DNA from: Spirochaetia bacterium
GTDB taxonomy: Bacteria > Spirochaetota > Spirochaetia > CADAEX01
Assembly: GCA_963662795.1 (NCBI GenBank)
Contig: OY759746.1
Coordinates: 2,016,001-2,080,000 of the forward strand
Length of the DNA: 64,000 nt
Reading direction: 5' to 3'
Both the position numbers and the translations under genes were made by a program. The notes below the pieces were generated by a model, which was given only the letters and a program-made list of their open reading frames with translations, made no database searches and had not been told where the DNA came from. This document shows, one piece after another, positions 6,690 to 62,200 of this stretch; positions within the stretch are counted from its first letter, which is position 1, and each line of letters starts with the position of its first letter.

Positions 6690-6943
6690 GTCCGGCCTTG
6701 GCGGTGCCGTGCGGCCTGGACAAGAAGGGACGTACTGCTGCTAACAGCGAATGACCGGTTCCGGCTGTTTCTAAGGAAACAGCCTCCACCCAAATTGCCG
6801 AAATAATACATGTCAAGAATAATGGAATAGAGTATAAACTTTTGGAGTTAAAAAAACACCATCGGCAACTTCGGTCATTCGCGAGACGTTATATGCAATA
6901 CGACCCCAAGAGGACGCCGCCCGGACCTCCGGCCCACGGGCGA
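6690..6943 (+). repeat. Composite junction site S5 (3 | gamma | 4)
   Basis: GGGACGTACTGCTGCTAAC ... GTTATATGCAATACGACCCC. Confidence 0.9.
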
Positions 6944-6958
6944 AGAAAATAGTATCTA

Positions 6959-7017
6959 CTGTATAATATACTTTATACACAAGATATATAGTTTTCTAGT
7001 TATTTAATATGTTATGT
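6959..7017 (+). promoter_or_regulatory. attI-like capture segment of carrier cassette 1
   Basis: CTGTATAATATACT...TTTCTAGTTATTTAATAT|GTTATGT; similarity to the other six copies ends at GTT. Confidence 0.7.
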
Positions 7018-7045
7018 CGACAAAAAATCAATAATGGAGTGTTAA

Positions 7046-8605
7046 ATGGTTAAAATCAATAAACTAATAATAGAAAATTTCAAAAAATTCCGTTATAGGC
7101 TTGATGTTGATTTTAACGATGAAATAAACATTTTTATCGGTGATAATGAATCTGGAAAAAGTACTATTTTAAAGGCTCTTGAATATGTTACAAGTGGAAA
7201 TAGATATAAAATAGAATCGGATGGTTTTGATAAGATAATAAATTTAGACTCTGTAAATGAATTTATGAAGTCCGAAAAAAAGTATAATGACTTACCAGTA
7301 GTATTTGTAGAAGTCTACCTAGATTCAAAAGATAATCCAGCCCTAAACGGCAAAAATAATCTTCTTAAAAAAGAATGTGATGGATTAAGACTAAAAATAT
7401 GTCCAGATGATGATTTGTCTAGTGCAATTAAATCTATTCTTGAAGAAAGTGATGGCATATTTCCATATGATTTTTATACTATCAAATTCAATACATTCCA
7501 AGGTGAAGGTTACACAGGTTACAAGAAGTATATTCAATCACTTTTAGTTGATAACAGTTTGATCGGTGATGAGACTGCAATAAAGCAGTATATAAAAGAT
7601 GTTTATTCTGGTTTTGTGTCTGAATCAGAGGATAATAGGAATGAAAGTAACTATAGAAAATTAAAGAAAAAATTCACAGATGACACATTAAGTGCTGTTA
7701 ATTCTAAAATTGAAGACTATTCTTTTGGTTTAAAACATGATCGAAAATCTAATTTGAAAACTGATTTATCAATATATGAAGATGAGATCAGCATAGATAA
7801 TAAAGGAAAAGGTCGCCAATGCTTCATAAAGACAGAATTTGCATTAATGAAAGATACTGGACATATAGATATTGTCCTTCTTGAAGAGCCAGAGAATCAT
7901 CTTAGTCACAATAATATGAATCTACTTATTGAAAAAATACTAATATCAAAATCAAGGCAATTATTTATTGCTACACATAGCAATGAAATCTGTTCTCGGC
8001 TGAACCTTCTGAATAGCCATCTAATAAATAGTAGTTCTGAAAAAACATTGAAGCTTAATAAAATAAATCCTGAAACTGCTGATTTTTTTATGAAAGCTCC
8101 AAATAATGATCTTCTAAGATATGTCACTTCAAATAAGGTAATTTTAGTTGAAGGAAACGCAGAATACATCCTTATGGATGAATTAGTGAAAATTGTTTCA
8201 GGAAAAACATCCAAAGAGAATGGATTCTCAATAATTTCTGTTGGAGGACTTAGTTTTAAAAGATATATGGAAATTGGAAATTATTTAAAAATAAAAACAG
8301 CAGTAATTAGAGATAATGATAGTGATTATAAAAAGCATTGTATAAATAATTATACCGATTCTGTTTCCAAAGAAACAAAAATTTTCTATACAACTGATAA
8401 TGATTTATATACTTTTGAAGTTTGTTTGTATAATGATAATAAAAAATTATGCAATGAGCTATTTAGTGCAGGCCGTAAATCATTATCAGTTAAAGAGTAT
8501 ATGTTACAAAACAAAGCTGAGTCAGCTTATCAATTACTCAAAAATGGTTCTATAATAAATGTCCCAGACTATATTTGCGCAGGAATAAAATGGATAATAG
8601 ACTGA
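7046..8605 (+). CDS. gajA: OLD-family ABC-ATPase/TOPRIM nuclease, Gabija GajA-like
   Basis: Walker A GDNESGKST, LLEEPENHL, TOPRIM ILVEG and RDND; directly upstream of a UvrD-like gene. Confidence 0.8.
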   Translation: MVKINKLIIENFKKFRYRLDVDFNDEINIFIGDNESGKSTILKALEYVTSGNRYKIESDGFDKIINLDSVNEFMKSEKKYNDLPVVFVEVYLDSKDNPALNGKNNLLKKECDGLRLKICPDDDLSSAIKSILEESDGIFPYDFYTIKFNTFQGEGYTGYKKYIQSLLVDNSLIGDETAIKQYIKDVYSGFVSESEDNRNESNYRKLKKKFTDDTLSAVNSKIEDYSFGLKHDRKSNLKTDLSIYEDEISIDNKGKGRQCFIKTEFALMKDTGHIDIVLLEEPENHLSHNNMNLLIEKILISKSRQLFIATHSNEICSRLNLLNSHLINSSSEKTLKLNKINPETADFFMKAPNNDLLRYVTSNKVILVEGNAEYILMDELVKIVSGKTSKENGFSIISVGGLSFKRYMEIGNYLKIKTAVIRDNDSDYKKHCINNYTDSVSKETKIFYTTDNDLYTFEVCLYNDNKKLCNELFSAGRKSLSVKEYMLQNKAESAYQLLKNGSIINVPDYICAGIKWIID

Positions 8606-9615
8606 TTCTTGCTGTCGCTGGAGCTGGAAAAACAACTTACATAATTAGAAAATTAACCCTTGAAAAAAGAGCCTTAATTATCACTTATACAAATAATAAT
8701 TTCGAAAATTTAAGAACATCGGTAATCGATAAATTTGGCTATATTCCACCCAATATTACAATTATGACTTATTTTTCTTTTATTCATTCATTTTGTTATT
8801 TACCTTATTTAAAAGATGAATGTAAAACAAATGGAATTTTCTTTAAGCCAAACATAAATCAATATGCGAAAGGACGATCTCGATACATTACAAATGGAGA
8901 CCGACTTTATTCTAATCGAATTTCTAAATTTATAATGGAAAAGGGAATTTTAAAAAATGTGATAGAAAGAATAGAAAGATATTTTGATTTACTATTTATT
9001 GATGAAATACAAGATTTTGCTGGAAATGATTTTAACTTTTTACTCAGTCTAAATACTTTGAAAATTCCTCAATTATATGTTGGTGACTTTTATCAGCATA
9101 CTTTTGATACGAGCAGAGATGGTATCGTAAATGGAACTCTTCATGATGATTTACAAAAATATAAAGAGTGGTATACAAAAATAGGATTTGATATTGACGA
9201 AGAAACATTATCAAGAAGCTATCGTTGCGGTCCTGTGATATGTGACTATATTTCAAGAAATTTAGGAATTAGCATAAAATCTCATAAACAAGATAAATCT
9301 TACATTAAGTTTACAAAAGATGAAGCAGATGTCAAAGAATTATTCTTAAACAATACTATTATAAAATTATTTTATCAGAAACATTATGCTTATAAAAAAT
9401 ATACAAGAAATTGGGGTGACTCAAAAGGAGAAAACCAGTATTTAGATATTTGTGTTGCATTGAATGATGGTACATATAAAAAATATTGCAGTTCTGAATT
9501 ACATAATTTACCAGAACAAACAAAAAATAAGTTATATGTTGCACTAACACGTGCAAATAGAAACGTATATATGGTTCCTGAGAAGGTTGTTAAAAAAATT
9601 GTGCAATCCAATTAG
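8590..9615 (+). CDS. gajB: Short UvrD-like helicase, Gabija GajB-like
   Basis: AVAGAGKTT, FIDEIQD, VGDFYQ, SYRC, LYVALTRA; overlaps the gajA stop. Confidence 0.8.
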   Translation: MDNRLILAVAGAGKTTYIIRKLTLEKRALIITYTNNNFENLRTSVIDKFGYIPPNITIMTYFSFIHSFCYLPYLKDECKTNGIFFKPNINQYAKGRSRYITNGDRLYSNRISKFIMEKGILKNVIERIERYFDLLFIDEIQDFAGNDFNFLLSLNTLKIPQLYVGDFYQHTFDTSRDGIVNGTLHDDLQKYKEWYTKIGFDIDEETLSRSYRCGPVICDYISRNLGISIKSHKQDKSYIKFTKDEADVKELFLNNTIIKLFYQKHYAYKKYTRNWGDSKGENQYLDICVALNDGTYKKYCSSELHNLPEQTKNKLYVALTRANRNVYMVPEKVVKKIVQSN

Positions 9616-9635
9616 TCTTTATCTTTTTTTGTAAG

Positions 9636-10310
9636 ATGGGGTATGTTCAATTGAGTGAATGGTTAAATAAAGCAAAAGAAAATCTCTTCAATTCCAGTGT
9701 AGAAAAAAATAACCTTCAAAAAGCAATAACTGAATGGAGCGTAACAGAAAATGTAATAGATTATCTTGAAGAGGTAGAATCATTTGAGGATTTTTATGCC
9801 AGTTGTGAACTATGTGAGCATCCAAATCTTAGATGGCATTTTGAAATACTGAATGAGTATACAAATAAATCTTTATGGGTAGGTTCAAAATGTATTTTGA
9901 AGTTTGGAATAAGGCTTCTTGATGAATATGGATCAGAGTACAATCATGAAGAGAAAGAAAAAAAGTTAAACTCCATAATTACTAGAAAAAGAAAGTCAAT
10001 TAAAGATGAAAAGTTACTGTCTATTTTAAGGAAATTATGGAATAGAGATACAGAATTCAGAAGCTATATTGAAAAATCGGTTAAATTTTTTAAAAAAAAT
10101 AACTCATTTACACCCAAACAAATTCTTACGATAGATTGGAGATTAAGTAAACATCACATTAAATTTGCTAAAGAAATATTCAAAGTTAGAATAAGAAATC
10201 AAAAAGAACGAGATGAAATATATAATTTAGAAGATTGGCAGAAGGAGAAATTGATTAAGTACTTAACTCATGATCAGATAGAAAAATATATGAAAGGAAT
10301 GCGGACATAA
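9636..10310 (+). CDS. Hypothetical Zn-binding protein, third gene of the Gabija-like cassette
   Basis: CELCEH...H...VGSKC motif; stop codon lies in the attC inverse core. Confidence 0.6.
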   Translation: MGYVQLSEWLNKAKENLFNSSVEKNNLQKAITEWSVTENVIDYLEEVESFEDFYASCELCEHPNLRWHFEILNEYTNKSLWVGSKCILKFGIRLLDEYGSEYNHEEKEKKLNSIITRKRKSIKDEKLLSILRKLWNRDTEFRSYIEKSVKFFKKNNSFTPKQILTIDWRLSKHHIKFAKEIFKVRIRNQKERDEIYNLEDWQKEKLIKYLTHDQIEKYMKGMRT

Positions 10311-10442
10311 CAAGAGATTTGGAGTAGTCAAAATTTATTGTCACGATTCTGGCTAAAGACGTTCGGCTGATAGCCTCACTCCAGAATCGTGACAATTCCG
10401 CGAAGACACGGAACAATTTTGCTACTCAAATCGTCGTTATAC
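10305..10442 (+). repeat. Canonical-type attC site
   Basis: ACATAAC ... GTTATAC, imperfect inverted repeat; inverse core matches GTTATGT at 7011. Confidence 0.8.
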
Positions 10443-10466
10443 TGGAATATTTAGAAAAGAGGAAAA

Positions 10467-10757
10467 GTCCGGCCTTGGCGGTGCCGTGCGGCCTGGACAA
10501 GAAGGGGTCGTACTGCATATAACAGCGATTATTTCGCTGCGCTCCCTGTGGTCGCTTGGGCTCCTGCCAGTTGAGCTGGCAGATCGCCATATTTTGTTTT
10601 CATAAAACCGGAACAACATGTGTTTTATACTCTTCAAGTTTGTAAAAACCAAATAAAAGTATTTTAGAGGTTAGTCACAAAACATCGAATAATCGCGAGA
10701 CGTTCTCCGAAATACCGCCCCAAGAAGAGATCGCCCGGACCTCCGGCCCACGGGCGG
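10467..10757 (+). repeat. Composite junction site S6 (4 | alpha | 5)
   Basis: GGGGTCGTACTGCATATAAC ... GTTCTCCGAAATACCGCCCC. Confidence 0.9.
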
Positions 10758-10865
10758 AAGATAGGAAAAGAAAATATAATAATCAGAAAGTGTTTAATAT
10801 TGCTAAAATGGATATTGATTATTTGACAACTTGACAAATAAAATAATTCAAAATATATTAATTGT

Positions 10866-11105
10866 ATGAAAACAATGCAAATAGGGGATTTTAAAGCTCA
10901 ATTTTCAAAGGTTCTTGAAGAAGTGAAACAAGGGGAAGAAATAATAATTTCTTATGGCAAGAAGAAAAAAAATGTAGCTGTAATAATTCCATATGAAGAG
11001 TATAAAGAGAAAAATAAGATAAAACTGGGCTTATTAAAGAATAAAGTAAGCTATAAATTTAATACTGATTATGAAATGACAGAAGAGGAGTTAGTAAACC
11101 TTTGA
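10866..11105 (+). CDS. Phd/YefM-family antitoxin
   Basis: DFKAQFSKVLEEVKQGEEIII motif; overlaps the PIN toxin gene. Confidence 0.85.
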   Translation: MKTMQIGDFKAQFSKVLEEVKQGEEIIISYGKKKKNVAVIIPYEEYKEKNKIKLGLLKNKVSYKFNTDYEMTEEELVNL

Positions 11106-11500
11106 AATATCTTCTCGATACGCATTATTTAATCTGGAGTTTGATTGATCCGGAAAAAATAGATAAGAAGAAAAAAAAGATATTATTAGATGAAAATTCG
11201 GAAAAATATATAAGCCAAATAAGCTTTTGGGAAATATCAATCAAATATTCACTTGGTAAGTTAGAATTAAATGGAATTACCCCTGAAGAATTGCTTGAAG
11301 CAGCGATTGAATCAGGATTTCAAATATTGGAATTGGAAACAAAAGTACTAGCAACATCGTATAAACTACCGAAGAAAGACAAGCACAAAGATCCTTTTGA
11401 CCGATTAATGATTTGGGAATGTATTTGCAATGAATATATTTTCTTGACAGAAGATGAAAAGGTAAAGGAATATAAAGAAAACGGCTTAAAAATAGTTTAG
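11102..11500 (+). CDS. vapC: VapC/PIN-domain toxin
   Basis: YLLDTH, SFWEI, HKDPFDR. Confidence 0.9.
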   Translation: MKYLLDTHYLIWSLIDPEKIDKKKKKILLDENSEKYISQISFWEISIKYSLGKLELNGITPEELLEAAIESGFQILELETKVLATSYKLPKKDKHKDPFDRLMIWECICNEYIFLTEDEKVKEYKENGLKIV

Positions 11501-11550
11501 AATAAAATCTATCAAATAAGTAGCAAACATAGACAGTAACAGAAAAACGC

Positions 11551-11833
11551 CCAAGCCTTGGCGGTGCCGTGCGGCTTGGAAGAGAGGGGCGGTACTTCGG
11601 AGAACAGCGATTATTTCGCTGCACTCCCGATGGTCGCTTGGGCTCCTGCCAGTTGAACTGGCAGATCGCCATATTTTGTTTTCATAAAACCAGAACTGCA
11701 TGTATTTTATGTTTTTTATGTTTAAAAAACCAAATAAATGTATTTTTAGAGGTTAGCCACAAAACATCGAATAATCGCGAGACGTTATTTGAAATGCCCC
11801 GTAGGAAAATATATCGCGCCTTCCTGGCGCGAT
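11551..11833 (+). repeat. Composite junction site S7 (5 | alpha | 6)
   Basis: GGGGCGGTACTTCGGAGAAC ... GTTATTTGAAATGCCCCGTA; variant hairpins. Confidence 0.9.
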
Positions 11834-11878
11834 GGGAAATTCTAAAGACTAATGGAAATTAGTTAAAATGAAATGTAA

Positions 11879-12289
11879 TTATAAAGTATTGAGACCAGCT
11901 TTGATACAAGCTGCTGTTAATTCTTTATCTAAAGATCCTATTGAACCCTGTTTTCTAATTCCAAGTTCCAAATAAGCAGCATCATAAGCACTTAAGTTAT
12001 AGATCTGAGTAAGTTCCAGAAGTTTTTCAGTGTATTCACTACCATAATTTGAATCAGTTATAAAATTAAATGAAGAAAGAAGCTTATTTATATTTAGAAC
12101 ATCATTGTGTTTTAAGCGTTTTCTTTTTACAGCAGTTGTTAAAACATTACTCATTTCATACCACCATAGTAGAGGAATATAAACTTCATCATTTTCTTCA
12201 ATATTTAGAAAAGATTTTTTAATAATTTCTGATTTTTCATCAGGAAGAAATAGAGATGCACAAAAAGAGCAATCAAGAATATAAACCAT
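11879..12289 (-). CDS. vapC: VapC/PIN-domain toxin (inverted TA cassette, copy 1)
   Basis: YILDCS, WWYE, LSAYDAAYLEL; start placed at MVYILD. Confidence 0.85.
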   Translation of the reverse strand: MVYILDCSFCASLFLPDEKSEIIKKSFLNIEENDEVYIPLLWWYEMSNVLTTAVKRKRLKHNDVLNINKLLSSFNFITDSNYGSEYTEKLLELTQIYNLSAYDAAYLELGIRKQGSIGSLDKELTAACIKAGLNTL

Positions 12290-12290
12290 T

Positions 12291-12521
12291 TTATTTCCTG
12301 CCAGATTTAATAGCTTCAAGTATGTTAAATTTCTCGTTTAAAGAGCTTTGATATTGAAATAATTGTGCAATTATCTCTTTACGAAGATATGTGTCTTCAG
12401 AAAAAGGAATAATTTTAGCAACAGGTTTTCCTCTTTTTGTTATGGTATAATTCTTGCCTTTTTGAACTTCTTCAATTATTTCTGAAAAATGTGTTTTAGC
12501 ATCAAAAGTACCAATATTCAT
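12291..12521 (-). CDS. Phd/YefM-family antitoxin (copy 1)
   Basis: DAKTHFSEIIEEV...ITKRGKPVA. Confidence 0.85.
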   Translation of the reverse strand: MNIGTFDAKTHFSEIIEEVQKGKNYTITKRGKPVAKIIPFSEDTYLRKEIIAQLFQYQSSLNEKFNILEAIKSGRK

Positions 12522-12637
12522 AAAGACCTCTTATAATCTAGTATAGTAAGCTAGTAGCATAAAGTCAAGAAATATAGTAAAGAATAATTACAAGAGTAAA
12601 AACTTTTAATTTTGTAAGATATAGCGCTAAAGCAAGA

Positions 12638-12902
12638 AAGCCTATAGACGTCCTGTCTATAGGCTTAATACGGGGCACTTCAAATAACAGAGGATAATGC
12701 GCTACACTCGGAGTACCTCGCTTGGCCTGCGGCACACATCGTAGATATTAAGAATACAGCTTCTATAAACAACAAGTTTTTGAAAAAATATATTACAACT
12801 TTTAGGTATTCACACTTATCCTACGATGCGTCGCTTATCCTCGGGACGTTATATGCAATACGACCCCAAGAGAAATCGCCCGGACCTCCGGCCCACGGGC
12901 GA
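12638..12902 (+). repeat. Composite junction site S8 (6 | beta | 4)
   Basis: Hairpin AAGCCTATAGACGTCCTGTCTATAGGCTT; TACGGGGCACTTCAAATAAC. Confidence 0.9.
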
Positions 12903-12917
12903 AGAAAAGGTGATTTG

Positions 12918-12976
12918 CTGTATAATATCCTCTATATTTAAAATATATAGTTTTCTGGTTATTTAATATGTTAACT
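12918..12976 (+). promoter_or_regulatory. attI-like capture segment of carrier cassette 2
   Basis: CTGTATAAT...TTATTTAATAT|GTTAACT. Confidence 0.7.
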
Positions 12977-13039
12977 GTACAAATCGATTGAATAAATTTA
13001 TGTTATACTAATAAATGAATATTATTCTGGAGTAAAAAA

Positions 13040-15055
13040 ATGACTGAACTCCCGAAAGTTGGATATACACATACAAAAGAAAGAAAAAGCATTAAACAAC
13101 TTGCAAATATATTACCAGATGAATTATTTATCCTTAGATCAGAAGATGGTGGAGATTATGGTGTTGATCGCATTATTGAAGTAATTGAAAATTGGGAAGC
13201 AACAAATATTCGATGTCATATTCAAATAAAAAGTACAACAAAAAACTCTAAAAATGAAAAGCTGAATTATTCTGTTCCAATAAAGACAATTAATTATTTA
13301 TTGAATAGCTTGAATTCTATTTTTATTGTTTATTCTGAAAGCGAAAACAAATATTATTGGGAATGGGTCGGTCGTATATCTACAAAAAAGAATCAATCAA
13401 ATAGTAAAGGCAAAAAAACATTTTCCTATTATTTTTCTTCAATATTAGATATCGAGTCATTCAAGAAAATTCACACACGATTAATTAGTGATTCAGAATT
13501 TGTAAAGAAAATTAATTTATCTGCAAGTCCATATAAAAAGGTAATTTTAACTGAAAAAATACATGAAAGTTCATATAGAGAATATCTTATTATGTACGCT
13601 GAAGGAAAATATGAAAAAATCATTGCAATTTCTAAGGAAATAGAAAAGATCACACCCACATTAAATTCTCTAATTTCTCTCTGTTATTATAGTATTTATA
13701 ATTATGATGAAGCTTTAAATCATATATTAAAAGCCGAACAAGAAGAGAAAAATAGTGAATTTCAGAAAATAAAGGCTGCAATTTTATGTGAAAAAGGATT
13801 AGCAGAAAATAATACAGAGATTCTTGAGCAAGCAAAAAAAATATTTTTGGAAATTAAAAGTAATGATTGGGGGTGGATGGATTTATACAATTATGGAAAT
13901 ATTTTATCTGGTTTGGCAGAATTTGAACAAGCTGAAGATTGTTATAAAAATGCGATACAACTTGAAGAAAATGAGGCAATTGTTTGGAAAAATCTTAGTA
14001 GCATATACTATCATAAAAATGATTATGAAAAAGAAATGGATTGTTTAAATAAAGCTCTGGAAATTGATGAAAACTTAATTGAGGCATTAATTTGTAAGGG
14101 GATTTCTCTTGGAAATAACTATTCTGAATATTTAGAAGCTATTACTTGTTTAAGGAAAGCATTAGAGCTCTCAAGGAAGAATCTGTATAAAAATAACTCA
14201 GTTTATTATTGGTTAAGTTATTTCCTAAATCAAAGTAAGCAATATAAAGAATCTCTGATAATGATTGAAGAAGGTTTAAAATATCATCCAGGAGATAGAA
14301 ACTTAGATGGTTTAAGGGTAAAAACCTTAATAATAGCCTCAGAATCCTTAAAAGAATATGAAAATATTGTTATAACTGAACTTGATAGAATTATTGATAA
14401 ATACCCAGATAATATTTGGGCACTAAAAGAGAAAATAAAAATATTAGGTCGTCAAAAATCCTTACACGAAATATTCCCATTAATTAAAAAATGTTTTTTA
14501 CTCTATAATTATGATATTGACATTGAAATAATTATGGATTTAACACTAAATCAAATCATGTATATTCTGGACAATATAAATATCGTTTCTGAATATAGAA
14601 AAAATAACAATATCGGCAGTTATTTTTTTGAAAGCTATAATATTGGAATTTCAATTATGCAGAAAATAGAAATGAAAATGAATCTAAAATTTATTGCTTT
14701 CTTTTACCTATTGAATGATTTAGATGAAAATGCAGTCTTTCCTGTTATGGAAGATCATGCAAAGGCTATATTAGACTTAATCGAAAATATAACAGAGTTC
14801 TTAGTTTATGATCTTATTGATGGATCAATTGATGAAAAATCGGAAAGAATAACACATATAATAACCACACTTCCTGAAATTCTCCTAATTGAACTATCAA
14901 GACAGAATGGATGGAATCTTGTAAAGCATAATTTTAAGATCGAAATAGCAGATTATTTTATTGAAAATTCTTTAATAATACATAATTGGTTGAACAATTG
15001 TTTGGAACCTATTTTAAAAGGAGCAAATAACATTTTTAAATGGGATAAAAAATAG
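13040..15055 (+). CDS. DUF4365-like PD-(D/E)XK nuclease fused to TPR repeats
   Basis: DYGVD..IE...IQIKS at the N-terminus; TPR-like helical repeats in the middle. Confidence 0.75.
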   Translation: MTELPKVGYTHTKERKSIKQLANILPDELFILRSEDGGDYGVDRIIEVIENWEATNIRCHIQIKSTTKNSKNEKLNYSVPIKTINYLLNSLNSIFIVYSESENKYYWEWVGRISTKKNQSNSKGKKTFSYYFSSILDIESFKKIHTRLISDSEFVKKINLSASPYKKVILTEKIHESSYREYLIMYAEGKYEKIIAISKEIEKITPTLNSLISLCYYSIYNYDEALNHILKAEQEEKNSEFQKIKAAILCEKGLAENNTEILEQAKKIFLEIKSNDWGWMDLYNYGNILSGLAEFEQAEDCYKNAIQLEENEAIVWKNLSSIYYHKNDYEKEMDCLNKALEIDENLIEALICKGISLGNNYSEYLEAITCLRKALELSRKNLYKNNSVYYWLSYFLNQSKQYKESLIMIEEGLKYHPGDRNLDGLRVKTLIIASESLKEYENIVITELDRIIDKYPDNIWALKEKIKILGRQKSLHEIFPLIKKCFLLYNYDIDIEIIMDLTLNQIMYILDNINIVSEYRKNNNIGSYFFESYNIGISIMQKIEMKMNLKFIAFFYLLNDLDENAVFPVMEDHAKAILDLIENITEFLVYDLIDGSIDEKSERITHIITTLPEILLIELSRQNGWNLVKHNFKIEIADYFIENSLIIHNWLNNCLEPILKGANNIFKWDKK

Positions 15056-15062
15056 CATAGAC

Positions 15063-15168
15063 AGTTAACAAACGCATGCAACTGATAAAATCTTTGTCAC
15101 ACATTTTGCTTACGCAAAATATGCGCCAACCCTTCGGGACGATTTTGCAACTGATGCGGCCGTTAAAT
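15063..15168 (+). repeat. Canonical-type attC site
   Basis: AGTTAAC ... GTTAAAT; inverse core matches GTTAACT at 12970. Confidence 0.8.
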
Positions 15169-15196
15169 ATACTGGAATATTTAGAAAAGAGGAAAA

Positions 15197-15449
15197 GTCC
15201 GGCCTTGGCGGTGCCGTGCGGCCTGGACAAGAAGGGGTCGTACTGCATATAACAGCGAATGGCCGGTTCCGGCTGTTTCTAAGGAAGCAGCCTCCACCCA
15301 AATTGCCGAAATAATTCATGTTAAGAATAATGGAATAGAGTATAAACTTTTAAAGTGAAAAACACCATCGGCAACTTCGGTCATTCGCGGGACGTTATCC
15401 ACAATACCCCCACAAGAAGCGATCGCCCGGACCTCCGGCCGACGGGCGA
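15197..15449 (+). repeat. Composite junction site S9 (4 | gamma | 7)
   Basis: Same architecture as the other sites. Confidence 0.9.
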
Positions 15450-15509
15450 GAGAATCCAGAATAATGAATATGTTTAAAGAAAGCTGATGATATATAATGT
15501 AAATAGTAA

Positions 15510-16163
15510 ATGGAGAATGATATGGGAATTGTTTATATTTTAACTAATGATGCAATGCCAGGAATAATCAAAATAGGAATAACTGATGGAACTGTTGAAG
15601 ATAGAATAAAAAATCTTGACAATACTTCTTTGCCATTACCATATAGGTTTTATTTTGCTATTAAAAGTAGTAGATACAAGGATATTGAAAAATTAGCGCA
15701 TAATGCTTTTTCTGAATATAGGGTAAGAGAAAATAGGGAATTTTTCCGAATTGATCCGGAACGTGCAGTCTCAGCATTAAGGATATCTGGAGAGAATGAA
15801 ATAAAATTAAAGAATGAAATGATAGATGAAAGTGGAAGTGTTGTAGAGAATAAAATCGAAGAAACAAAGTCATATAAAAAACGATTTTCTTTTGATAATG
15901 TAGGTATTCCTATCGGGGCAGAATTGGCATTTACTCGAGATGAGAGTAAAAAATGTATTGTAATATCAAATAGCGAAGTTGAATATAATAATCAATCTTA
16001 TTCATTATCAAAATTAGCAGATATATTTCTTACTGAAATGGGTTATAATTGGAAATCAGTACAAGGACCTGCATATTTTGAATATAATGGGAAAACACTT
16101 TATGAACTTAAAAAAGAAATGGAAGAAGAAGTCTTAGAGATAGAGGAAGAAGAATCCAAATAG
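15510..16163 (+). CDS. T5orf172/GIY-YIG family nuclease-domain protein
   Basis: GIVYILTN.AMPGIIKIG and REFF motifs. Confidence 0.8.
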   Translation: MENDMGIVYILTNDAMPGIIKIGITDGTVEDRIKNLDNTSLPLPYRFYFAIKSSRYKDIEKLAHNAFSEYRVRENREFFRIDPERAVSALRISGENEIKLKNEMIDESGSVVENKIEETKSYKKRFSFDNVGIPIGAELAFTRDESKKCIVISNSEVEYNNQSYSLSKLADIFLTEMGYNWKSVQGPAYFEYNGKTLYELKKEMEEEVLEIEEEESK

Positions 16164-16205
16164 CAAATGTTCAATTTTTTAATCCATTAATTTTTGAAAA
16201 AGCTA

Positions 16206-16477
16206 GTCCGGCCTTGGCTCCGCCGTACGGCCTGGACAAGAAGTGGGGGCACTGTTGGATAACAGAGGATAATTCGCTGCGCTCGGAATACCTCGCTTGG
16301 CCTGCGGCATATTTTGCTATCAATAAAACAGTTCATATTATATTTTTACTCTCTTTAAATATATTTCCCAAGACTATTATGTTAAAAAAGGTTTTAGCAA
16401 AACATCGCTTATCCTCAGGACGTTATCCACAATGCCCCCACAAGATGCGATCGCCCGGACCTCCGGCCGACGGGCGA
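16206..16477 (+). repeat. Composite junction site S10 (7 | beta variant | 7)
   Basis: Same architecture. Confidence 0.9.
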
Positions 16478-16543
16478 GGATATTCAATATTGAAAATGTA
16501 CAATACCAATCATAAAATGTGTTTGATTATAAAAGGGGAAAAT

Positions 16544-17158: not shown

Positions 17159-17203
17159 ACCGATAATTTGTACTAGTAGAATAATTACCTGACAATAGAA
17201 GAA

Positions 17204-17475
17204 GTCCAGCCTTGGCTCCGCCGTACGGCCTGGACAAGAAGTGGGGGCACTGGTGGATAACAGAGGATACTGCGCTACGCTCGGAGTACCTCGCTTGGCC
17301 TTCGGCACACATCACAGGTTTTAAATTACTGCTTTTAGAATTAACAAGTTTTCAAAAGAAAGATATATAATATTTGTCTTTTTATTCATTGGCTGTGATT
17401 CGTCGCGTATCCTCAAAACGTTATCCACAATGCCCCCACAAGAGAAAATCGCCCGGGCCTCCGGCCGACGGGCGA
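17204..17475 (+). repeat. Composite junction site S11 (7 | beta | 7)
   Basis: TGGGGGCACTGGTGGATAAC ... GTTATCCACAATGCCCCCA. Confidence 0.9.
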
Positions 17476-19399: not shown

Positions 19400-19405
19400 A
19401 AAGCC

Positions 19406-20122: not shown

Positions 20123-20123
20123 T

Positions 20124-56205: not shown

Positions 56206-56220
56206 AGAAAGTAGAATCTG

Positions 56221-56279
56221 CTGTATAATATACTTTATACATAACATATATAGTATACTAGTTATTTAATATGTTATGC
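56221..56279 (+). promoter_or_regulatory. attI-like capture segment of carrier cassette 7
   Basis: CTGTATAATATACT...CTAGTTATTTAATAT|GTTATGC. Confidence 0.7.
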
Positions 56280-56708
56280 TGCACATAAGAAAAATATACA
56301 ATAATTTAATTTGGAGGAAATTATGAATGTTCATAAACTAAGAATTCTATTGCTAAATGTAATTATTATTTTGATCAGTTGCCAAACAATGAATGGTGGT
56401 GATAAACCTTTCTTATTGCAAGGGCCAAAAGAGACAGTTGTTAAAAAGCAGAATTATATTGCTAACGAACTAAAACGAATATTCTTAACAAATGAGAGAA
56501 TTGCAAATGGTGATTCATCAATTGATGAAATTTATAAAAACTATATTGAATCTGTAAATTCTGTAAAAATAGAAGTTGAGAAAGCTTTAAATGAATTTAC
56601 TTCTAAACCTGGTAACATGAAAAATAACAAAAAAATATATACTTACTTTACAAAATTATCATCTTTGGCTGAACTTCAAAATATATTCAGTGATAGTTTA
56701 AATAAACT

Positions 56709-57983
56709 CATAGGTGTCCAAAACAATCATAACAGCTCCAGTTGAAGATTGAAACTAGTTTTTTTAGTCTGTTCTGAAGGCGGTTTATTGAGAACAGTCC
56801 AGATATCTTTTCTTGATGTCAGTATTACAGGAATCAATTTCATCAGTGAAAAATGAGTCCATTTTCTACATGAAAACATTTTAAGGAACTGAAGTAACAG
56901 AAAAGCAATTAGGGCAATCCAGATTTGTGTCATTACAGCATTTCTGGAAGTACCAAAGAATTTCTTGATCTTGAGGTTCTGTTTGATAGTTTTAAAAAAT
57001 ATTTCAATCTGCCATCTGTCTTTGTAAACAGCAGCAATTGTTGTTGGAGACCAAAGGAAATTATTGGTAAGAATTACAATATATTTACCGGTTTCAGGAT
57101 CTCTGCTTCTGATTCGTCTTAATTTTAACGGGCATTTTTTACTGGTGTAAAATCCTTTCATTTCTATGATCTGATCAGATGTAATATTTTTAAAGGAGGA
57201 GGTATCTTTTCTCTGGACAATTTTATAATCAGCATTCTTTTTTAACCTGGTAACAAAATAAATACCGGTATTACAATAATTTGCGAATAATTTAAAGTCA
57301 GTATAACCACGATCAAACGTGATGACATCGCCTTTGTTGAAAGCCATTTTTTTCAAGGAATTGACTTCATGTGTTTTTGCAGTTGTAACTGATACAAAAG
57401 CTGGAATATATCCACTATGGTCAAGTTTTACATTAAGTTTTATTCCGCCTTTATATTTTCTGAAATTTGCCCATGGAAAGAGATTTAAACACAAGTCAAT
57501 AGTTGATGCATCAACACTGTAAAGAGGATTTTTAAATTTATGTTTATGCGCTCTCTTCATGGATAATATCTTATCAAGAAGATCAGTGAAAACATTTTCA
57601 TAAACTTCACAGCTTCTATTATTATTTGCGTAAGATAATGTAGAGCGTTTTACCTTTTTTACACCCATATGATAAAGGTGGTTACTGATTGATTCAAAAG
57701 AGTTTTCAATGCCTCTTAACCCGGTCTGTCCTGAAAGTTGTGCAAAGAGCATGGAGACAAAATGCTGCCAACAGGTAAAACCTTTGGAAGCAAAGTCCCC
57801 TTTATGTTTTTTTACAGATTTTTCAAATTCATGTCTCGGAATTATTTGTAGAATTTGTTTTAAAATGGTATTATTGTAACTCATTGCCTGATTTCCTTTT
57901 CCTGTAAAGAATTAGCCGTCCAAGCTTAATTCATTATAGTTGGGATTTCAGGCAATTAATAGTCCTTGTTTTGGACACCTATG
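56709..57983 (-). mobile_element. IS4-family insertion sequence, copy 3
   Basis: Same TIRs; 9-bp target duplication AAATAAACT. Confidence 0.92.
56727..57884 (-). CDS. IS4-family DDE transposase
   Basis: Protein identical to copies 1 and 2. Confidence 0.92.
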   Translation of the reverse strand: MSYNNTILKQILQIIPRHEFEKSVKKHKGDFASKGFTCWQHFVSMLFAQLSGQTGLRGIENSFESISNHLYHMGVKKVKRSTLSYANNNRSCEVYENVFTDLLDKILSMKRAHKHKFKNPLYSVDASTIDLCLNLFPWANFRKYKGGIKLNVKLDHSGYIPAFVSVTTAKTHEVNSLKKMAFNKGDVITFDRGYTDFKLFANYCNTGIYFVTRLKKNADYKIVQRKDTSSFKNITSDQIIEMKGFYTSKKCPLKLRRIRSRDPETGKYIVILTNNFLWSPTTIAAVYKDRWQIEIFFKTIKQNLKIKKFFGTSRNAVMTQIWIALIAFLLLQFLKMFSCRKWTHFSLMKLIPVILTSRKDIWTVLNKPPSEQTKKTSFNLQLELL

Positions 57984-58604
57984 AAATAAACTATATAATG
58001 AAAATGGTGGAAAATATAATGTCCTTGGTTCAGATAAGTATGCACAAAATAAACATTATTTTGAAAATGAAGAGCAGTTATTACTATTTTTCAATAATAA
58101 ATATCCTGAAATTGAAAAATCATTTACTATTGTAAATGATGTTTTAGCAACAGTTGATATTGAGAAAGAGAATATTCTTAAGTATTCAAAAGAGCATGAA
58201 TACAGTGAATTGCTAAAATTTGTTGAAGAAAAATATAACAAACAATTAACAATGTCTCTTAGTAAAATAGTTGGTGAAAATACTTTGTTATCTGCAGCGA
58301 TATTTAATAATTACAGCAATGATCGATTGTATTATCTTGGTAATGCATTTGAACAATTACAATTATTAGAAGACGGGATTTTGATTATTGCAACATCAAA
58401 TTTAAATTCATATAGTTTCTTCTTAAAAACAGAAGAAAAGAATCCAGATGGATATAGATTCACTGATAAAGATTTTGTGTTCATTGATGGATTGTATGAA
58501 TATGAAAGCTTAACAGGAAGAAAAACAGTTTATAAATTAATTCATGTAAAAGCACTAAAAGAATACTATTTCATCTAGATAAAAATTAAAAATTGAAGAG
58601 TTCA

Positions 58605-58701
58605 GCATAATATTCAATTGGATCAGACAAACCTACCTGTCATGGTTTTTGCATTCGCAAAAACACACGCCAGTTTACGGTTTGCAGGTCAATTGGGCGT
58701 T
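58605..58701 (+). repeat. Canonical-type attC site split at its GTT by an IS1182-family element
   Basis: GCATAAT-ATTCAATTGGA...GTCAATTGGGC-GTT; near inverse of GTTATGC at 56273. Confidence 0.7.
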
Positions 58702-60457
58702 GAGGCTGTAGATAAAGTGTAAATTTTCAACAATTGCTTTATATCCAGATATTCCCATGATAAAATTCTATCAGACTGGGAGATTACAAAATGGGTAAAT
58801 ACAAAGAGTATTCTTATGAACAAAAAGTGCTGCTGCCGATAGATTTTTCCGAGCAGGTTCTTCCCGGAACCTTTGAACACACACTCAATTTTCTCATTGA
58901 CCGGGAAATTGATTTAACCATGTTTTATGAAAAACATAAAAATGATGAAAATGGAGCTCCCGCCTACGATCCGGCGATCTTACTGAAGATAATTCTTTTT
59001 GCTTATTCACGGGGAATTATTTCCAGCAGAAGAATTGCCCGATTATGTCGGGAAAATGTCGTTTGCATGTCCCTCTCCGCAGATACCCGGCCGCACTTTA
59101 GCACCATAGCTGATTTTATTTCTACGATGGATAAAGAAATCGCTCCCCTGTTTACCCGGATTCTCTCGGTCTGTTACGCCAATAACGTCATCGATAAAAA
59201 CATGTTTGCCATCGACGGCTGCAAGATTTCTTCCAATTGCTCAAAGGAATGGAGCGGAACGAAAAAAGAACTGCTAAAAAAAGCGGGAAAGATAGAGGAA
59301 TCTATCAAATACCTGTTGGAAAAACATAAACAGGAAGATAAAAGCCGGTATAGTCAAAGTCAGGAAGAGAAAGAAAAGGCTTCGATAGAGAAACTGAAAG
59401 CTAAATCCCAAAAGATCCATGACTGACTGAACTCAAATGACGATAGAATGGGAAGCCAGGGGAAACCAATAAAAAGCAATATTACCGACAATGAAAGCGC
59501 GAAGATGTCCACCTCCCATGGAGTTATCCAGGGTTATAACGGAATTGCGGCGGTTGATGAAAAGAACCAATTAATCGTTTGGGCGGAAGCATTTGGCGAC
59601 AGCAATGAATCCAAACATTTCCCCGAGATTCTGGATGGAATAAAAAACAATTTTAAATCGATTCAGGCATCGGAAGATATCTTGAAAGAAACAGTGATTA
59701 CCGCCGACAGCGGTTTTCATAATGATAATAATATGAAGCTGATTGTGGAAAATAACCTGACAGCCTTTGTCGCGGACAACCAGTTTCGAAAGAGGGATGT
59801 GAGATTTGCATCAGCCCAGAAACATAAACAAAAACCTGTCACGAATTGGGAACCTGCCAAAGGGAAAAAATATTACTCAGTAGATGATTTTATCTATGAT
59901 GAAAATACAAAGAAATTAATGTGCCCAGCTGGTTTCGAAATGAAACTGAAGTGCAGGAACTTTCAAAGCTCTGGCTATAGTGGAACATCCTACATAGGGA
60001 GAAAGGAAAACTGCTTAACCTGTCCGCTAAGAAAGAAGTGTATACGTAAAGAGAGCACGGAAGTCAGACAGGTGACCAGGTTTGATAGTAGTCGGGGAAA
60101 AGAAAAGGTCTCATTTACAGAACGAATGAGGAGAGTCTTTGACGCGCCTGAAGGTCGGAGTATCTACAGTAAAAGAATGGGTACTGTAGAACCGGTGTTT
60201 GGAAATATCCGATCGACACTGGGGTTAAATTATTTTACACTGCGAAGTAAGAATAAGGTAAATGTTCAATGGTTGCTTTTCTGTATTGTGCATAACATTG
60301 GAAAAATACAGAGGTATGCGGAAGCATAGGGGAAAATAGAGGATGAAATGAATCAGGGATTACATTTTGACCTCACAAGACAATCTTATGGACTTTATGA
60401 TCTTGTAGAATGGGAGAAGTAAATGAAGATTGAAAATCGGGGTTTTTCTACAGCCTC
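58702..60457 (+). mobile_element. IS1182-family insertion sequence
   Basis: TIR GAGGCTGTAGA / TCTACAGCCTC, flanked by GTT on both sides. Confidence 0.85.
58791..60329 (+). pseudogene. IS1182-family transposase with in-frame TGA at 59424-59426
   Basis: PAYDP..LLKI..FAY, AIDG.K, TD.ES, ADSGF, Y.KR...VEPVFG; the two ORFs share one frame. Confidence 0.85.
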
Positions 60458-60481
60458 GTTATATCGAAAAAGGTATTAAAA

Positions 60482-61876
60482 ATGATTAGACAGAAAGAAA
60501 TTGAGAGAATAAGACAAAATAGAGTTAAGTGGTTTTGCCATCATGTGAAAATATTCCAGGAAAACATTAAAGATGGAATTTCACTTGAAGGCCATGGAAC
60601 TTTGGAAGTGAATGATAGGGGTAGTCTGTACATCGATTTCATTTGCACAAGGTCAAATATCCGGCCTGATTTTAGGGAATCTATACCAAATGATACACTA
60701 GATACAAATGCTTTACTGATACTTAATGCCGAAACAATAACTGGAATCAAAATTACATCAAAAAATATTATTATAAAGCCTCAATTATTCAATTCAATGC
60801 AACCAGAACCAACATATTATAGAATACCTCTAGACGAAATAATATCAACAACTGAAGATAAGTCATCATATCAAAATCAGTCTATGATTATTGAATGCCA
60901 TGAAAATTTATTAATTCCTTCAAATAAATCGAATAGCATTGTATCAACATTAGGGAATGAATCACATAGTTGGAATGAAACAGAATTAAATATTGCTGAA
61001 AATAAAATCAATATAATAAAGCACGATAATTATTCAGAAATAATTATACGAGGAGAAAGTTTTGAAGAACAAGAATACCTTGAATCAATACTCTTGTATT
61101 TAAAAATAACAAGCGGAAATAATTTACAACCATATTACATATCAGTTCATAAAGAAAATATTATTAATGAAAAAGTTATTAGCATAGACTTAAATAATCT
61201 AAATAAAAGTATACCTTCACCTATTCCAGAAAATGCTGCTGATGTAAAAGGATATAGGTTGGATAACTACCATTATGATTTATTAGAAAATATTATAAAG
61301 ATAAAACAATCTTCGGAACATTATTTTACTACAATAGCATCTCACTGGCATAATATATGGTCAGCATTTCATGTGAAGAATCTATATATACCTAATTTAG
61401 TCTTATCTTTATCAATAGAAGGTATATTAAACGATATATTTATTCCTGTTTTAGAAAAAGTAACAATGGATTCTGAATTTGAAAAAATAAAAAAAGAAAT
61501 AAATTGTAAAATATCAAAAATTGATGGAATAGAAGAAAAGTATATAAAAAATATTAATGATTATGTAAATAGATGGGGAAATATTCATCCTAAAAAAGCA
61601 TTAGAAATTCTACAAGAGAAAGACCTCATTGAGAAAAAGCAAAAAGAGATATGGGAAATTTTAAGAAATAAATCAGCACATCCAAGAAATTCTGATAATC
61701 TTAAAACAATCAGAAAAAAGGATTATGAAAGATTAGTAGTATGCCTTGGATTGTTTTATGTTTTAATTCTAAATGTTTTTAAATTTGAGGGTGCACAATT
61801 TTCTTTTGCAAAAATTAAAGATGAGAAAATAGTGCTAAATCCTTATATAAACATATTGTACAATAATTCGATATAA
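60482..61876 (+). CDS. Hypothetical protein with C-terminal HEPN-like motif (ApeA-like layout)
   Basis: LRNKSAH (Rx4H); stop codon lies in the attC inverse core. Confidence 0.55.
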   Translation: MIRQKEIERIRQNRVKWFCHHVKIFQENIKDGISLEGHGTLEVNDRGSLYIDFICTRSNIRPDFRESIPNDTLDTNALLILNAETITGIKITSKNIIIKPQLFNSMQPEPTYYRIPLDEIISTTEDKSSYQNQSMIIECHENLLIPSNKSNSIVSTLGNESHSWNETELNIAENKINIIKHDNYSEIIIRGESFEEQEYLESILLYLKITSGNNLQPYYISVHKENIINEKVISIDLNNLNKSIPSPIPENAADVKGYRLDNYHYDLLENIIKIKQSSEHYFTTIASHWHNIWSAFHVKNLYIPNLVLSLSIEGILNDIFIPVLEKVTMDSEFEKIKKEINCKISKIDGIEEKYIKNINDYVNRWGNIHPKKALEILQEKDLIEKKQKEIWEILRNKSAHPRNSDNLKTIRKKDYERLVVCLGLFYVLILNVFKFEGAQFSFAKIKDEKIVLNPYINILYNNSI

Positions 61877-61934
61877 CAATCGCATGAACCAGATTTTCGC
61901 CATGTACGGAAAACAGGTTATGGGGGCGTTATAA
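61871..61934 (+). repeat. Canonical attC site (64 bp)
   Basis: ATATAAC ... GTTATAA; inverse core matches GTTATAT at 60458. Confidence 0.8.
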
Positions 61935-61954
61935 AAAAAATAGAAACGGGGGAA

Positions 61955-62200
61955 GTCCGGCCTTGGCGTTGCCGTGCGGCCCTGGACAAGAAGCGATGAT
62001 ACTGGTGGATAACAGCGGTTAAAGCGCTGCACTCGGAGTACCTCGCTTGGGCTTCGCCATAAAGGCGCGAACAAATACAGGTTAGGTCTAGAGTAATCAA
62101 TAAAACTTGTTTATTTTAAAGCAAGTGCGCCTTCATCGCTTAACCGCGGGACGTTAGTAGCAATACCCCGCCAAGAGAGAAGCGTGCCGTCCTGGCACGC
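61955..62200 (+). repeat. Composite junction site S35 (1 | delta | 12)
   Basis: Right arm GTTAGTAGCAATACCCCGCC; variant hairpin B. Confidence 0.9.

Follow-up and report, generated by a model that had tools for sequence, protein, structure and literature searches.

A stretch of 64,000 nt from the genome of a spirochaete (the window) contains seven units, out of 28 in the whole genome (3.93 Mb, about 30% G+C), that, to judge from their sequences, probably are docking cassettes: members of an outer array with giant recombination sites which themselves hold classical integron cassettes. The outer array is about 330 kb long and consists of swappable gene cassettes with sites of about 265 nt. It is adjoined by the gene for an intact tyrosine recombinase of 339 amino acids (aa) that lacks the IntI-specific insertion. 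The sole IntI of the genome is a pseudogene, with a frameshift and an in-frame stop, 1.6 Mb from the docking units, hereinafter carriers (1.4–1.7 Mb from the 28 full copies of their landing site, the head); no head is found near it. Directly visible in the sequences are the nested anatomy of the carriers, their precise junctions, the family of their attC sites, the matched outer arms and the presence of such units in other genomes.

A conserved head with a single junction point

The head is an AT-rich segment of about 70 nt that is located just after an outer-array junction in each of its 28 full copies, with the 3′ end 58–76 nt past the 3′ hairpin of that junction. A search of the 3.93-Mb genome with a hidden Markov model (HMM) of the head yielded 30 matches (28 full, one degenerate and one cut by an insertion sequence, IS), all on the + strand and between genome positions 1,878,297 and 2,170,092. 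In the window, a 21-mer from the 3′ end of the segment has seven matches, all on the + strand and with 0–3 mismatches, compared with 0.07 expected; these lie where the original prediction had placed a start segment shared by seven outer cassettes. Similarity was also predicted to stop at GTT, and does so: the mean pairwise identity of the 28 heads is 0.91 over positions −20 to 0, 0.45 over +1 to +7 and 0.31 over +7 to +40, the random value being 0.295. The junction falls on the identical base in 28 of 28 heads, 3 of which end with ATT rather than GTT. By eye, the last 30 nt contain the GTT-containing words GTTTTCT, GTTATTT and GTT, spaced 9 and 11 nt, which might be candidates for the integrase-binding repeats expected upstream of an attI crossover, and the head has no hairpin potential (z −0.87 to +0.28 for four heads, both strands, eight folds). 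The sequences support the view that the cargo units adjoin a single exact G|TT of a conserved site that does not fold, their junctions being of the attI × attC kind. The features of the window carriers are as follows; R1 denotes the covariance model of the inner attC sites described below, fold z refers to the bottom strand, and 'core' to the match between the inverse core and the start of the same cassette.

6944–7013, +, carrier 1 head, ends ATATGTT (21-mer 6993–7013)
7011–10442, +, carrier 1 inner cassette: GajA-like, GajB-like and 224-aa ORFs, then attC; core 5/6
10305–10442, +, carrier 1 attC: R'' ACATAAC, R' GTTATAC, left-arm extra bases; R1 88.6 bits, z −8.70
10438–10466, +, carrier 1 tail TATACTGGAATATTTAGAAAAGAGGAAAA, running into outer hairpin A; seven copies in the genome
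12903–12972, +, carrier 2 head (21-mer 12952–12972)
12970–15168, +, carrier 2 inner cassette: 671-aa protein with DUF4365 plus TPR; core 6/6
15063–15168, +, carrier 2 attC: R1 95.3 bits, z −3.75
15168–15196, +, carrier 2 tail, as in carrier 1
20734–20801, +, carrier 3 head (21-mer 20781–20801)
20799–22658, +, carrier 3 inner cassette: ApeA-like HEPN protein; core 6/6
22526–22658, +, carrier 3 attC, decayed: R' is GCT; R1 41.9 bits, z −0.37
22658–22686, +, carrier 3 tail, as in carrier 1
29980–30050, +, carrier 4 head (21-mer 30030–30050)
30048–31927, +, carrier 4 cargo: two ORFs without a family match; core 4/6, no match
31812–31927, +, carrier 4 attC, weak: R1 33.0 bits, z −0.48
45371–45439, +, carrier 5 head (21-mer 45419–45439)
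45437–46670, +, carrier 5 inner cassette: PIN_12 protein; core 7/9; followed by a tail ending TAGAAACGGGGGAA
46612–46670, +, carrier 5 attC, short: R1 28.4 bits, z +0.05
48753–48822, +, carrier 6 head, ends ATT, not GTT (21-mer 48802–48822)
To about 50825, carrier 6 cargo: no attC (R1, filters off); first ORF matches candidate system PDC-S60
56206–56275, +, carrier 7 head (21-mer 56255–56275)
56273–58705, +, carrier 7 first inner cassette: core 6/6, with AAT replacing AAC
56709–57984, −, IS4-like insertion inside carrier 7 first cassette: 385-aa DDE_Tnp_1 plus DUF4372 transposase
58605–58705, +, carrier 7 first attC: R'' CAGCATAAT; R1 48.9 bits, z −4.73
58702–60457, +, IS5-like element: DUF772 and DDE_Tnp_1_6 ORFs, inverted ends GAGGCTGTAGA / TCTACAGCCTC
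60458–61934, +, carrier 7 second inner cassette: 464-aa ORF; core 6/6; followed by a tail ending TAGAAACGGGGGAA
61871–61934, +, carrier 7 second attC: R1 43.6 bits, z −1.38

Among the genes carried as cargo in the window are Gabija, ApeA-HEPN, the DUF4365-TPR protein, PIN_12 and the candidate system PDC-S60. The tails recur as claimed (one type in carriers 1–3, another in carriers 5 and 7), including the extra C in hairpin A of the two class-1 carriers. Carrier 7 does contain the two canonical cassettes attributed to it and, additionally, the IS4-like and IS5-like elements, the latter sitting exactly in the GTT of the attC R' between the two cassettes, with GTT on both sides.

The inner attC sites

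R1 comprises 23 consensus pairs and was built from 16 of the 30 sites of this genome (10305 and 15063 among the seven window attCs), so that those 16 match by construction. The whole-genome search, in which the best 150 of 704 first-look candidates were scored, yielded at least 30 + strand sites, every one in the array, between positions 1,852,043 and 2,173,459; 27 of the 30 belong to 23 of the 28 long-head carriers and two lie behind a short variant of the head. Among the same scored candidates, there is no match in the other 5 of the 28 long-head carriers, and no classical array beside the IntI pseudogene. In the window, searched with filters off, all seven + strand matches are within carriers 1–5 and 7, as expected from the earlier observation that canonical attCs occur there only inside carriers.

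The sites have the makings of attC: an inverse core and a core, an imperfect palindrome and complementarity to their own cassette. In alignment A1, AAC and GTT are invariant across all 16 sequences; among the 30 sites, AAC is retained in 28 (AAT in two) and the GTT of R' in 24. When folded, the sites leave one or two bases of the left arm unpaired. The fold is strong in the three intact window attCs (z −8.70 to −3.75) and ranges from −1.38 to +0.05 in the four decayed or short ones; among these, the attCs of carriers 3, 4 and 5 do not surpass shuffled sequences. The six bases before AAC match the six bases after GTT at the start of the same cassette completely in 15 of the 30 sites and in at least five positions in 21; for the start of the next cassette, these counts are 0 and 1 of 30. 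Over 2000 permutations, the mean number of full matches was 0.76 and the maximum 5, against the 15 observed. Cargo ending in an attC that matches its own start, as originally predicted, is thus found in carriers 2, 3 and 7 (6/6), 1 (5/6) and 5 (7/9), but not in carrier 4 (only 4/6) or carrier 6 (no attC), and the attCs of carriers 3–5 are decayed.

The same attC family adjoins an integrase in five other spirochaete genomes, where R1 matches fill the arrays next to intact IntI genes (38 in G431, 18 in G384, 55 in G011, 52 in G008 and 19 in G005) and the first cassette after attI follows the same core rule as the inner cassettes; in the genome at hand, the IntI pseudogene stands without an array. 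The nearest intact IntI genes are 55–59% identical to this pseudogene. Sequence comparison therefore supports the assignment of the cargo units to canonical integron cassettes with the spirochaete family's own type of attC.

Carriers as cassettes of the outer array

In 26 of the 28 carriers, the two outer arms of about 20 nt are complementary, so that the head and the tail belong to one outer cassette; this supports the view, again from sequence, that the carriers are themselves outer-array cassettes. One class of arms is found only with heads (7 of 7 cassettes), and the cargo differs among these seven. Loaded carriers with other cargo, which the original prediction called for, are present in two genomes of a sister genus and in two metagenome contigs. 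One of these genomes, G008, has one carrier, in which the head core is identical at 29 of 29 positions and the start of the cassette is matched by its inverse core; the other, G011, has one carrier with a degraded junction. The metagenome contig L093 shares with this genome only the head, the attC and the tail. Empty carriers, the other expectation, did not turn up in the genome itself (at least 1101 nt separate each head from the outer site that follows), in 60 relatives or the species collection, or in the metagenome scan, where both matches are loaded. The cargo is no closer to the classical arrays of the relatives (matches for 5 of 48 ORFs) than are the other outer cassettes (30 of 217).

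The head and known attI sites

Like an attI, the head has cassettes directly behind G|TT and does not fold, which shows only that hairpin potential is missing; it is not beside intI, not single-copy and not detectably related to the attI sites of the relatives. The head HMM (nhmmer) gave E values above 70 at the attI of G005, G008 and G011, and local alignments of the head with the attI beside the closest intact IntI revealed no detectable relation (p 0.068–0.725); nor is the head similar to the own entry site of the outer array. Because attI sites diverge fast, this dissimilarity is weak evidence against an attI function. G008 and G011 carry a different attI beside their own IntI, so that IntI would be acting there on a second, unrelated site. 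The earlier interpretation of the carrier as an attI-like adaptor is supported in part, by the precise G|TT junctions and the canonical cassettes but not by any detectable kinship to the attI sites tested.

Proposed mechanism and alternatives

An empty docking unit is envisaged as gene-less and consisting, in this order, of a 5′ arm, a GC hairpin, the AT-rich head of about 70 bp, a tail of about 25 nt and the next outer site. The head would be a double-stranded landing site ending with ATATG|TT, where classical cassettes bearing the attC family of the IntI-linked chromosomal integrons of this spirochaete family would have been inserted repeatedly and independently, through a reaction of the attI × attC type that was most likely catalyzed by IntI. 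Newer cassettes would stack ahead of older ones; carriers with two attCs do exist. The outer arms stay matched when a carrier is loaded, so that it should remain an ordinary outer cassette and move as such, presumably being moved or copied by the recombinase at the start of the array; the head might also have a promoter role. With IntI a pseudogene and no classical array left, canonical cassettes would survive only inside the carriers, where several attCs are decaying. Tentatively, this could amount to two-tier capture, whereby the giant-site system circulates small adaptors, each with a functional landing site and possibly a promoter, and so turns the single attI of an integron into about 30 mobile docking sites; the classical pool could then be stored, expressed and moved within the 330-kb array even with the IntI platform lost.

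An unlikely alternative is that a single enzyme handles two kinds of sites, i.e. that the outer recombinase joins the inner attCs to the head, without involvement of IntI. This enzyme is intact and beside the array, IntI is broken, the heads stay 91% alike, the outer and inner sites have a common core (CGTTAT on the right, ATAAC on the left), and a crude scan for AAC...GTT arms picks up the outer sites as attC-like. However, R1, run on the window with filters off, scores no outer site, and the inner attC family fills the IntI-linked arrays of the five other genomes. The left-arm extra bases of attC are read by the IntI-specific insertion; the inner attCs have such bases and the outer enzyme has no such insertion. 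The decay of several inner attCs, too, fits the loss of their own enzyme.

That the head serves primarily as a promoter or leader of outer cassettes is decidedly unlikely; the terminal GTT would then be a secondary landing site and the cassettes would be kept through expression. Such a role would fit the TATAAT in the head, the lack of similarity to classical attI, the related leader GGATATGCAGTATAAT that opens many headless outer cassettes, and a short head variant ending with TATATGTT that hosts cassettes with a matching inverse core elsewhere in the array. Conservation, however, peaks in the 30 nt adjoining GTT (0.88–0.91), not in the TATAAT region (0.48–0.68), and the junction base is one and the same in all 28 heads. 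In a simple sigma-70 scan of window positions 5000–24000, none of the three heads covered has a site among the 60 listed of 113 promoter-like sites, and this total is not in excess of expectation (105.4, sd 10.2).

The reverse nesting, in which units made of a tail, one or more outer sites and a head invaded a classical array at G|TT, the outer sites being the guests, is very improbable. Topologically, the stretch from the tail through the outer site to the head, with G|TT at both ends, does resemble an insert, and the inner cassette of L093 contains diverged copies of both outer hairpins. Against this stand the complementary outer arms, the location of most carriers between outer cassettes without any attC, the occurrence of heads in only 28 of the 165 outer intervals, and the separate loci of the classical and outer arrays in relatives. 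Chance resemblance between AT-rich sequences, or an error of assembly, which the low G+C content and 57 single chance matches of exact head 21-mers in unrelated genomes might bring to mind, is rejected, given that none of 100 shuffles reaches seven matches, that the core-match permutations fall far short of the observed value, that two further genomes and two metagenome contigs have the same structure, and that contigs of the source sample span the cargoes and show no differences.

Comparison with known systems

An integron is described as having a single integrase, a single attI and a single array. No description of one gene-capture system nested inside another was found in the literature. 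Here, classical cassettes lie behind a multi-copy landing site that rides in a non-classical array, an arrangement found in two genera or more. Provided that the head does work as such a site, the attI function is detachable from the integrase gene and can be made mobile, an adaptor can couple two recombination systems, and a pool of cassettes, which here includes Gabija and further genes for defence, can persist beyond the loss of its integrase. Annotation software that searches for IntI together with attC clusters would presumably list nothing here but stray attCs, and overlook the 330-kb array.

In class 1 and Vibrio chromosomal integrons, IntI inserts cassettes at attI (attI × attC). The head resembles such an attI in being a double-stranded site that ends with G|TT, with cassettes directly behind it and, presumably, the newest nearest to the site; the pairing of each inverse core with the beginning of the cassette to which it belongs and the single orientation of cassettes are likewise shared with classical integrons. 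Unlike a classical attI, the head is not beside an integrase gene, is present in about 30 copies per genome, rides in mobile cassettes of a second array with sites of about 265 nt, and is not similar in sequence to the attI of related IntI genes. CALINs are clusters of attC without an integrase. The carriers are like them in having attC sites without a functional IntI nearby, and differ in that each unit contains only one or two attCs, opens with a conserved head common to all units, and has outer sites on both sides.

Vibrionaceae superintegrons include gene-less, promoter-bearing cassettes (bioRxiv 10.1101/2023.11.21.568050), which an empty carrier would resemble and, like them, may carry a promoter; in contrast to the carriers, no landing site or nested cassettes are described in the sections of that preprint concerned. 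Spirochaete chromosomal integrons have taxon-specific attC sites (Ghaly et al. 2021, PMC8352920). As far as that account goes, the inner attCs are of this kind, with R1 matching the IntI-linked arrays of five other spirochaete genomes; the difference is that the cassettes here are scattered, one to two per carrier, with no IntI-linked array. An attI-derived sequence inside a cassette array is recombined by IntI1 (2026, PMC12901181), so that attI-like sites remote from the platform have a precedent. The sites in the relevant part of that report are remnants of the integron's own attI that provide single resistance cassettes with their 3′ site, whereas the head is an unrelated, conserved 5′ landing pad inside the cassettes of another system.

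Carriers are units of the outer array

The whole window lies inside the outer array, a roughly 330-kb cassette array of a 3.93-Mb, single-contig genome with about 30% G+C (G000). Its junctions are GC-rich and about 265 nt long; their 3' hairpin motif has 166 copies on the + strand at C1:1,850,187-2,180,043 and none on the - strand. Two tyrosine recombinase genes belong to this locus:

Just upstream of the outer array, in the array orientation: tyrosine recombinase gene, 339 aa, Phage_int_SAM_4 and Phage_integrase domains
Window 34713-35597, - strand: second tyrosine recombinase gene, 294 aa, Phage_int_SAM_4 and Phage_integrase domains, within the array on the opposite strand

The 339-aa array recombinase is free of the insertion typical of IntI, the classical integron integrase. 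The outer cassettes have complementary arms of about 20 nt at both ends, adjoining GTT and AAC. The ~265-nt outer sites follow an attC-like logic, i.e. AAC, left arm, long middle, right arm and GTT framed by two GC hairpins (for example, window 6739-6894 and 29761-29929), and the CGTTAT/ATAAC core is common to outer and inner sites. A crude scan for AAC/GTT arms mostly picks outer sites, more strongly on the - strand, and is too insensitive for the inner ones.

Carriers, the outer cassettes with a conserved head and, typically, one or more inner cassettes with canonical attC sites and a shared tail, fit this scheme closely. The outer arms match across 26 of the 28 carriers: the one that follows the outer GTT on the upstream side is complementary to the one that precedes the outer AAC on the downstream side. 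The heads are confined to five arm classes, one of which occurs only with heads (7 of 7 members, all sharing a 29-nt tail, one with three differences), and in another, 10 of the 18 members have heads and the tail ends in TAGAAACGGGGGAA. From first to last, the carriers extend over 290 kb, scattered among 165 outer intervals. The reverse nesting, with outer sites inserted into a classical array, is therefore disfavored: the matched arms, the arm classes and the spread all argue against it. The carriers are, as judged from their sequences, outer cassettes. The adaptor interpretation of the original prediction is supported with respect to the nested anatomy (matched outer arms around inner classical attCs); its mechanism is hypothetical.

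Where the last attC meets the class-4 tail (window 10436-10445, 15162-15175 and 22652-22665; C1:1952239), the junction has two forms, GTTATACTGG in four of the seven cases and a form longer by 4-5 nt (GTTAAATATACTGG, GCTAATTATACTGG, GTTAAATGCACTGG) in the other three. The word GTTAAATGCAC is also found at cassette starts or ends in the metagenome contig L093 and in the genome G057.

The head ends at a shared GTT

The 21-mer at the 3' end of the head has seven matches in the window, against 0.07 expected, precisely where seven shared segments had been noted; with up to four mismatches, there are 28 copies in the outer array. A hidden Markov model of the head has 30 matches genome-wide, none of them outside the array or on the - strand; 28 are full heads, one is degenerate and one is split by an insertion sequence (IS). 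The head starts directly after the outer 3' hairpin and its ATATGTT end lies 58-76 nt further on, with terminal variants in a few of the 28 copies (ATT in three, TTT in one and GGT in one). The mean pairwise identity of the heads rises from 0.48 (positions -60 to -40) through 0.68 (-40 to -20) to 0.91 (-20 to 0), so that conservation peaks in the 30 nt adjoining GTT. Past GTT, it drops to 0.45 (+1 to +7) and then to a near-random 0.31 (+7 to +40; random expectation, 0.295); similarity therefore stops at GTT, as predicted.

An attI-like nature of the head, another part of the original prediction, finds no support in sequence homology: comparisons of the head with five classical attI sites and the outer entry site are negative, and among 337 kb of loci from relatives, the head model has no match at a classical attI. 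Four heads show no hairpin potential on either strand (z from -0.87 to +0.28 relative to shuffles). With regard to the putative promoter role of the head, no head is among the 60 of 113 promoter-like sites listed in a sigma-70 scan, and such sites are not in excess in the scanned region.

Inner sites and cassette boundaries

The covariance model of the inner sites, R1 (110 positions, 23 pairs), was built from an alignment of 16 well-aligned sites, A1, which keeps AAC and GTT in every sequence and has TTGTCAC and GCGCCAA as common central motifs. Across the genome, R1 finds at least 30 + strand sites, all at 1,852,043-2,173,459 (with 150 of the 704 first-look candidates scored); 16 of the 30 are the seeds of the model. 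Among the 30 sites listed, 27 lie inside 23 of the 28 long-head carriers, two follow a short head of 42 nt that ends in TATATGTT and have a matching inverse core, and one is unassigned. In the window, with the filters off, the seven + strand R1 matches are all in carriers 1-5 and 7, and none of the outer junctions scores, which bears out the observation that canonical attCs occur only within carriers. Folding of the bottom strand is pronounced in three of these sites (z of -8.70, -3.75 and -4.73) and weak in the other four (-1.38, -0.37, -0.48 and +0.05); the end of carrier 6 has no attC-like fold (z of -0.46). No Rfam family matches the window. A scan that allowed ATT as the right core also produced an inverse-core match inside an IS4-like element, which was rejected as a false site.

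The inverse core had been predicted to match the bases that follow the head GTT, and the comparison upholds this. Full complementarity between the six bases that precede AAC and the six that follow the cassette's own opening GTT is seen in 15 of the 30 sites listed, and at least five of the six pair in 21; two sites, 1948658 (start not identified) and 1895027 (in second place in its carrier, the first site there being missed by R1), are counted as misses. With the bases after each site's own right core as the control, the respective counts are 0 and 1 of 30, and 2000 permutations give a mean of 0.76 full matches and a maximum of 5. Such own-start pairing marks integron cassettes that are cut at G|TT. 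With at least 20 different cassettes adjoining one and the same head position, the head GTT appears to have been used as a crossover point many times.

Classical arrays in relatives and a broken integrase

Sites of the R1 type also occur in other spirochaetes. Within the same class, there are 38 matches in G431 and 18 in G384, in arrays diverging from an intact IntI gene; within the same family, 55 in G011, 52 in G008 and 19 in G005, beside intact IntI genes of 413-424 aa; and G057 has 32. The cassette next to attI shows the same own-start pairing in every relative array read. By these sites and their pairing, the inner cassettes of the carriers are identified as classical integron cassettes; taxon-specific attCs of spirochaete integrons are already described in PMC8352920. 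By eye, many classical cassettes of this attC family open with a short GC hairpin, after which comes a purine-rich ribosome-binding stretch; hairpins of this kind, in the first 10-35 nt, are seen at window 45440-45470, 30051-30085 and 48823-48850 and at L168:2467-2480, and echo the GC hairpin with which every outer cassette begins.

G000 itself has a single, damaged integrase gene:

C1:412089-413300: sole IntI gene, with the IntI-type insertion, a frameshift and an in-frame stop

The neighbors of this gene are IS genes and an rRNA operon, and none of the R1 sites scored lies close to it. Judging by its decayed attCs and broken IntI, the inner tier of G000 seems to be mostly a fossil.

Six relatives possess small outer-type arrays, with 4-17 junction hairpins each compared with 165 in G000 (C1:1850000-2180000), at loci other than their classical arrays. 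In these relatives, a large classical array goes with a small outer array; in G000, the relationship is reversed. In G057, a member of another family, an inner-type attC (G057:C9:478766-478904, 83.6 bits) lies within the outer array; neither a recognizable head nor a matching cassette start was found within 13 kb of it.

Cargo and insertion sequences

The cargo of the window carriers includes GajA-like and GajB-like proteins (PADLOC E-values of 1e-107 and 2e-50), a DUF4365-TPR protein, an ApeA-like HEPN protein, a PIN_12 protein, a protein matching the candidate defense system PDC-S60 and several ORFs without a family match. Import from the ordinary cassette pool, as proposed originally, is not reflected in the cargo: 5 of the 48 carrier ORFs (two of them transposases) match the relatives' classical arrays compared with 30 of the 217 ORFs in other outer cassettes, i.e. 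there is no enrichment. One cargo gene, in the carrier at C1:2141177, encodes a protein 78.6% identical to the product of a gene in the G008 classical array, with different cassette limits.

A 1785-nt stretch that is 99.9% identical (blastn) between carrier 7 and the carrier at C1:2145137 was considered as one inner cassette in two carriers and rejected: it is an IS5-like element (Pfam DUF772 and DDE_Tnp_1_6; 11-nt inverted ends) and is therefore no evidence for cassette mobility.

Window 58702-60457 and C1:2146925-2148680: IS5-like element, two copies in separate carriers, each inserted precisely within the GTT of an inner attC
Window 56709-57984 (- strand) and 37292-39834, C1:2123353 and C1:2159540: copies of an IS4-like element (385-aa DDE_Tnp_1 and DUF4372 transposase)

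Both IS5-like copies have GTT on either side and identical 15 nt upstream; by its position, the element may target attC right ends. Carrier 7 does contain two canonical cassettes, as predicted, and its IS5-like copy occupies the GTT between them. The IS4-like copies are scattered over the array: one lies within an inner cassette, one starts 8 nt past the G of a head GTT, one splits a head, and two ORF copies stand in tandem in the window.

Carriers beyond this genome

Carriers with other cargo, which the original prediction led one to expect, do exist. A metagenome scan with the head recovered two contigs. L093 starts with a head followed by 2.6 kb of unrelated cargo opening with GTTAAATGC, an attC with the inverse core GTATTTAAC, a class-1 tail and hairpin A; L092 contains an inner attC, a tail, an outer site at most 87% identical to those of G000, a short head and different cargo. 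The sister genus has one carrier in each of two genomes. In G008, it resides in the outer array, with a head core identical at 29 of 29 positions, the cassette start GTTCTAAAGA and the inverse core TCTTTAGAAC, the downstream part being interrupted by an IS3-type element; in G011, a loss of about 8 nt at the junction is followed by peptide-deformylase-like cargo (by eye), an attC and then an outer site. In L093, diverged copies of both outer hairpins (120-165 and 2585-2625) flank the three cargo ORFs of the inner cassette, an arrangement suggestive of the repackaging of an outer-type cassette into a classical one.

Other head matches were dismissed as chance, namely 57 single ones in a species collection, 10 among viral contigs and one, in a coding region, in 60 relatives searched with at most two mismatches, a limit that leaves out the true G008 head (three mismatches in the searched part). 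Neither empty carriers nor excised cassettes were seen in sequencing-run contigs, which break at repeats; run X4, labeled as a landfill metagenome, has nothing more than segments of other cassettes.

Neither nested arrays nor cassettes with an internal landing site are described in the full-text literature searched, supplements aside. The nearest published case found there is that of the delta-attI cassettes (PMC12901181).
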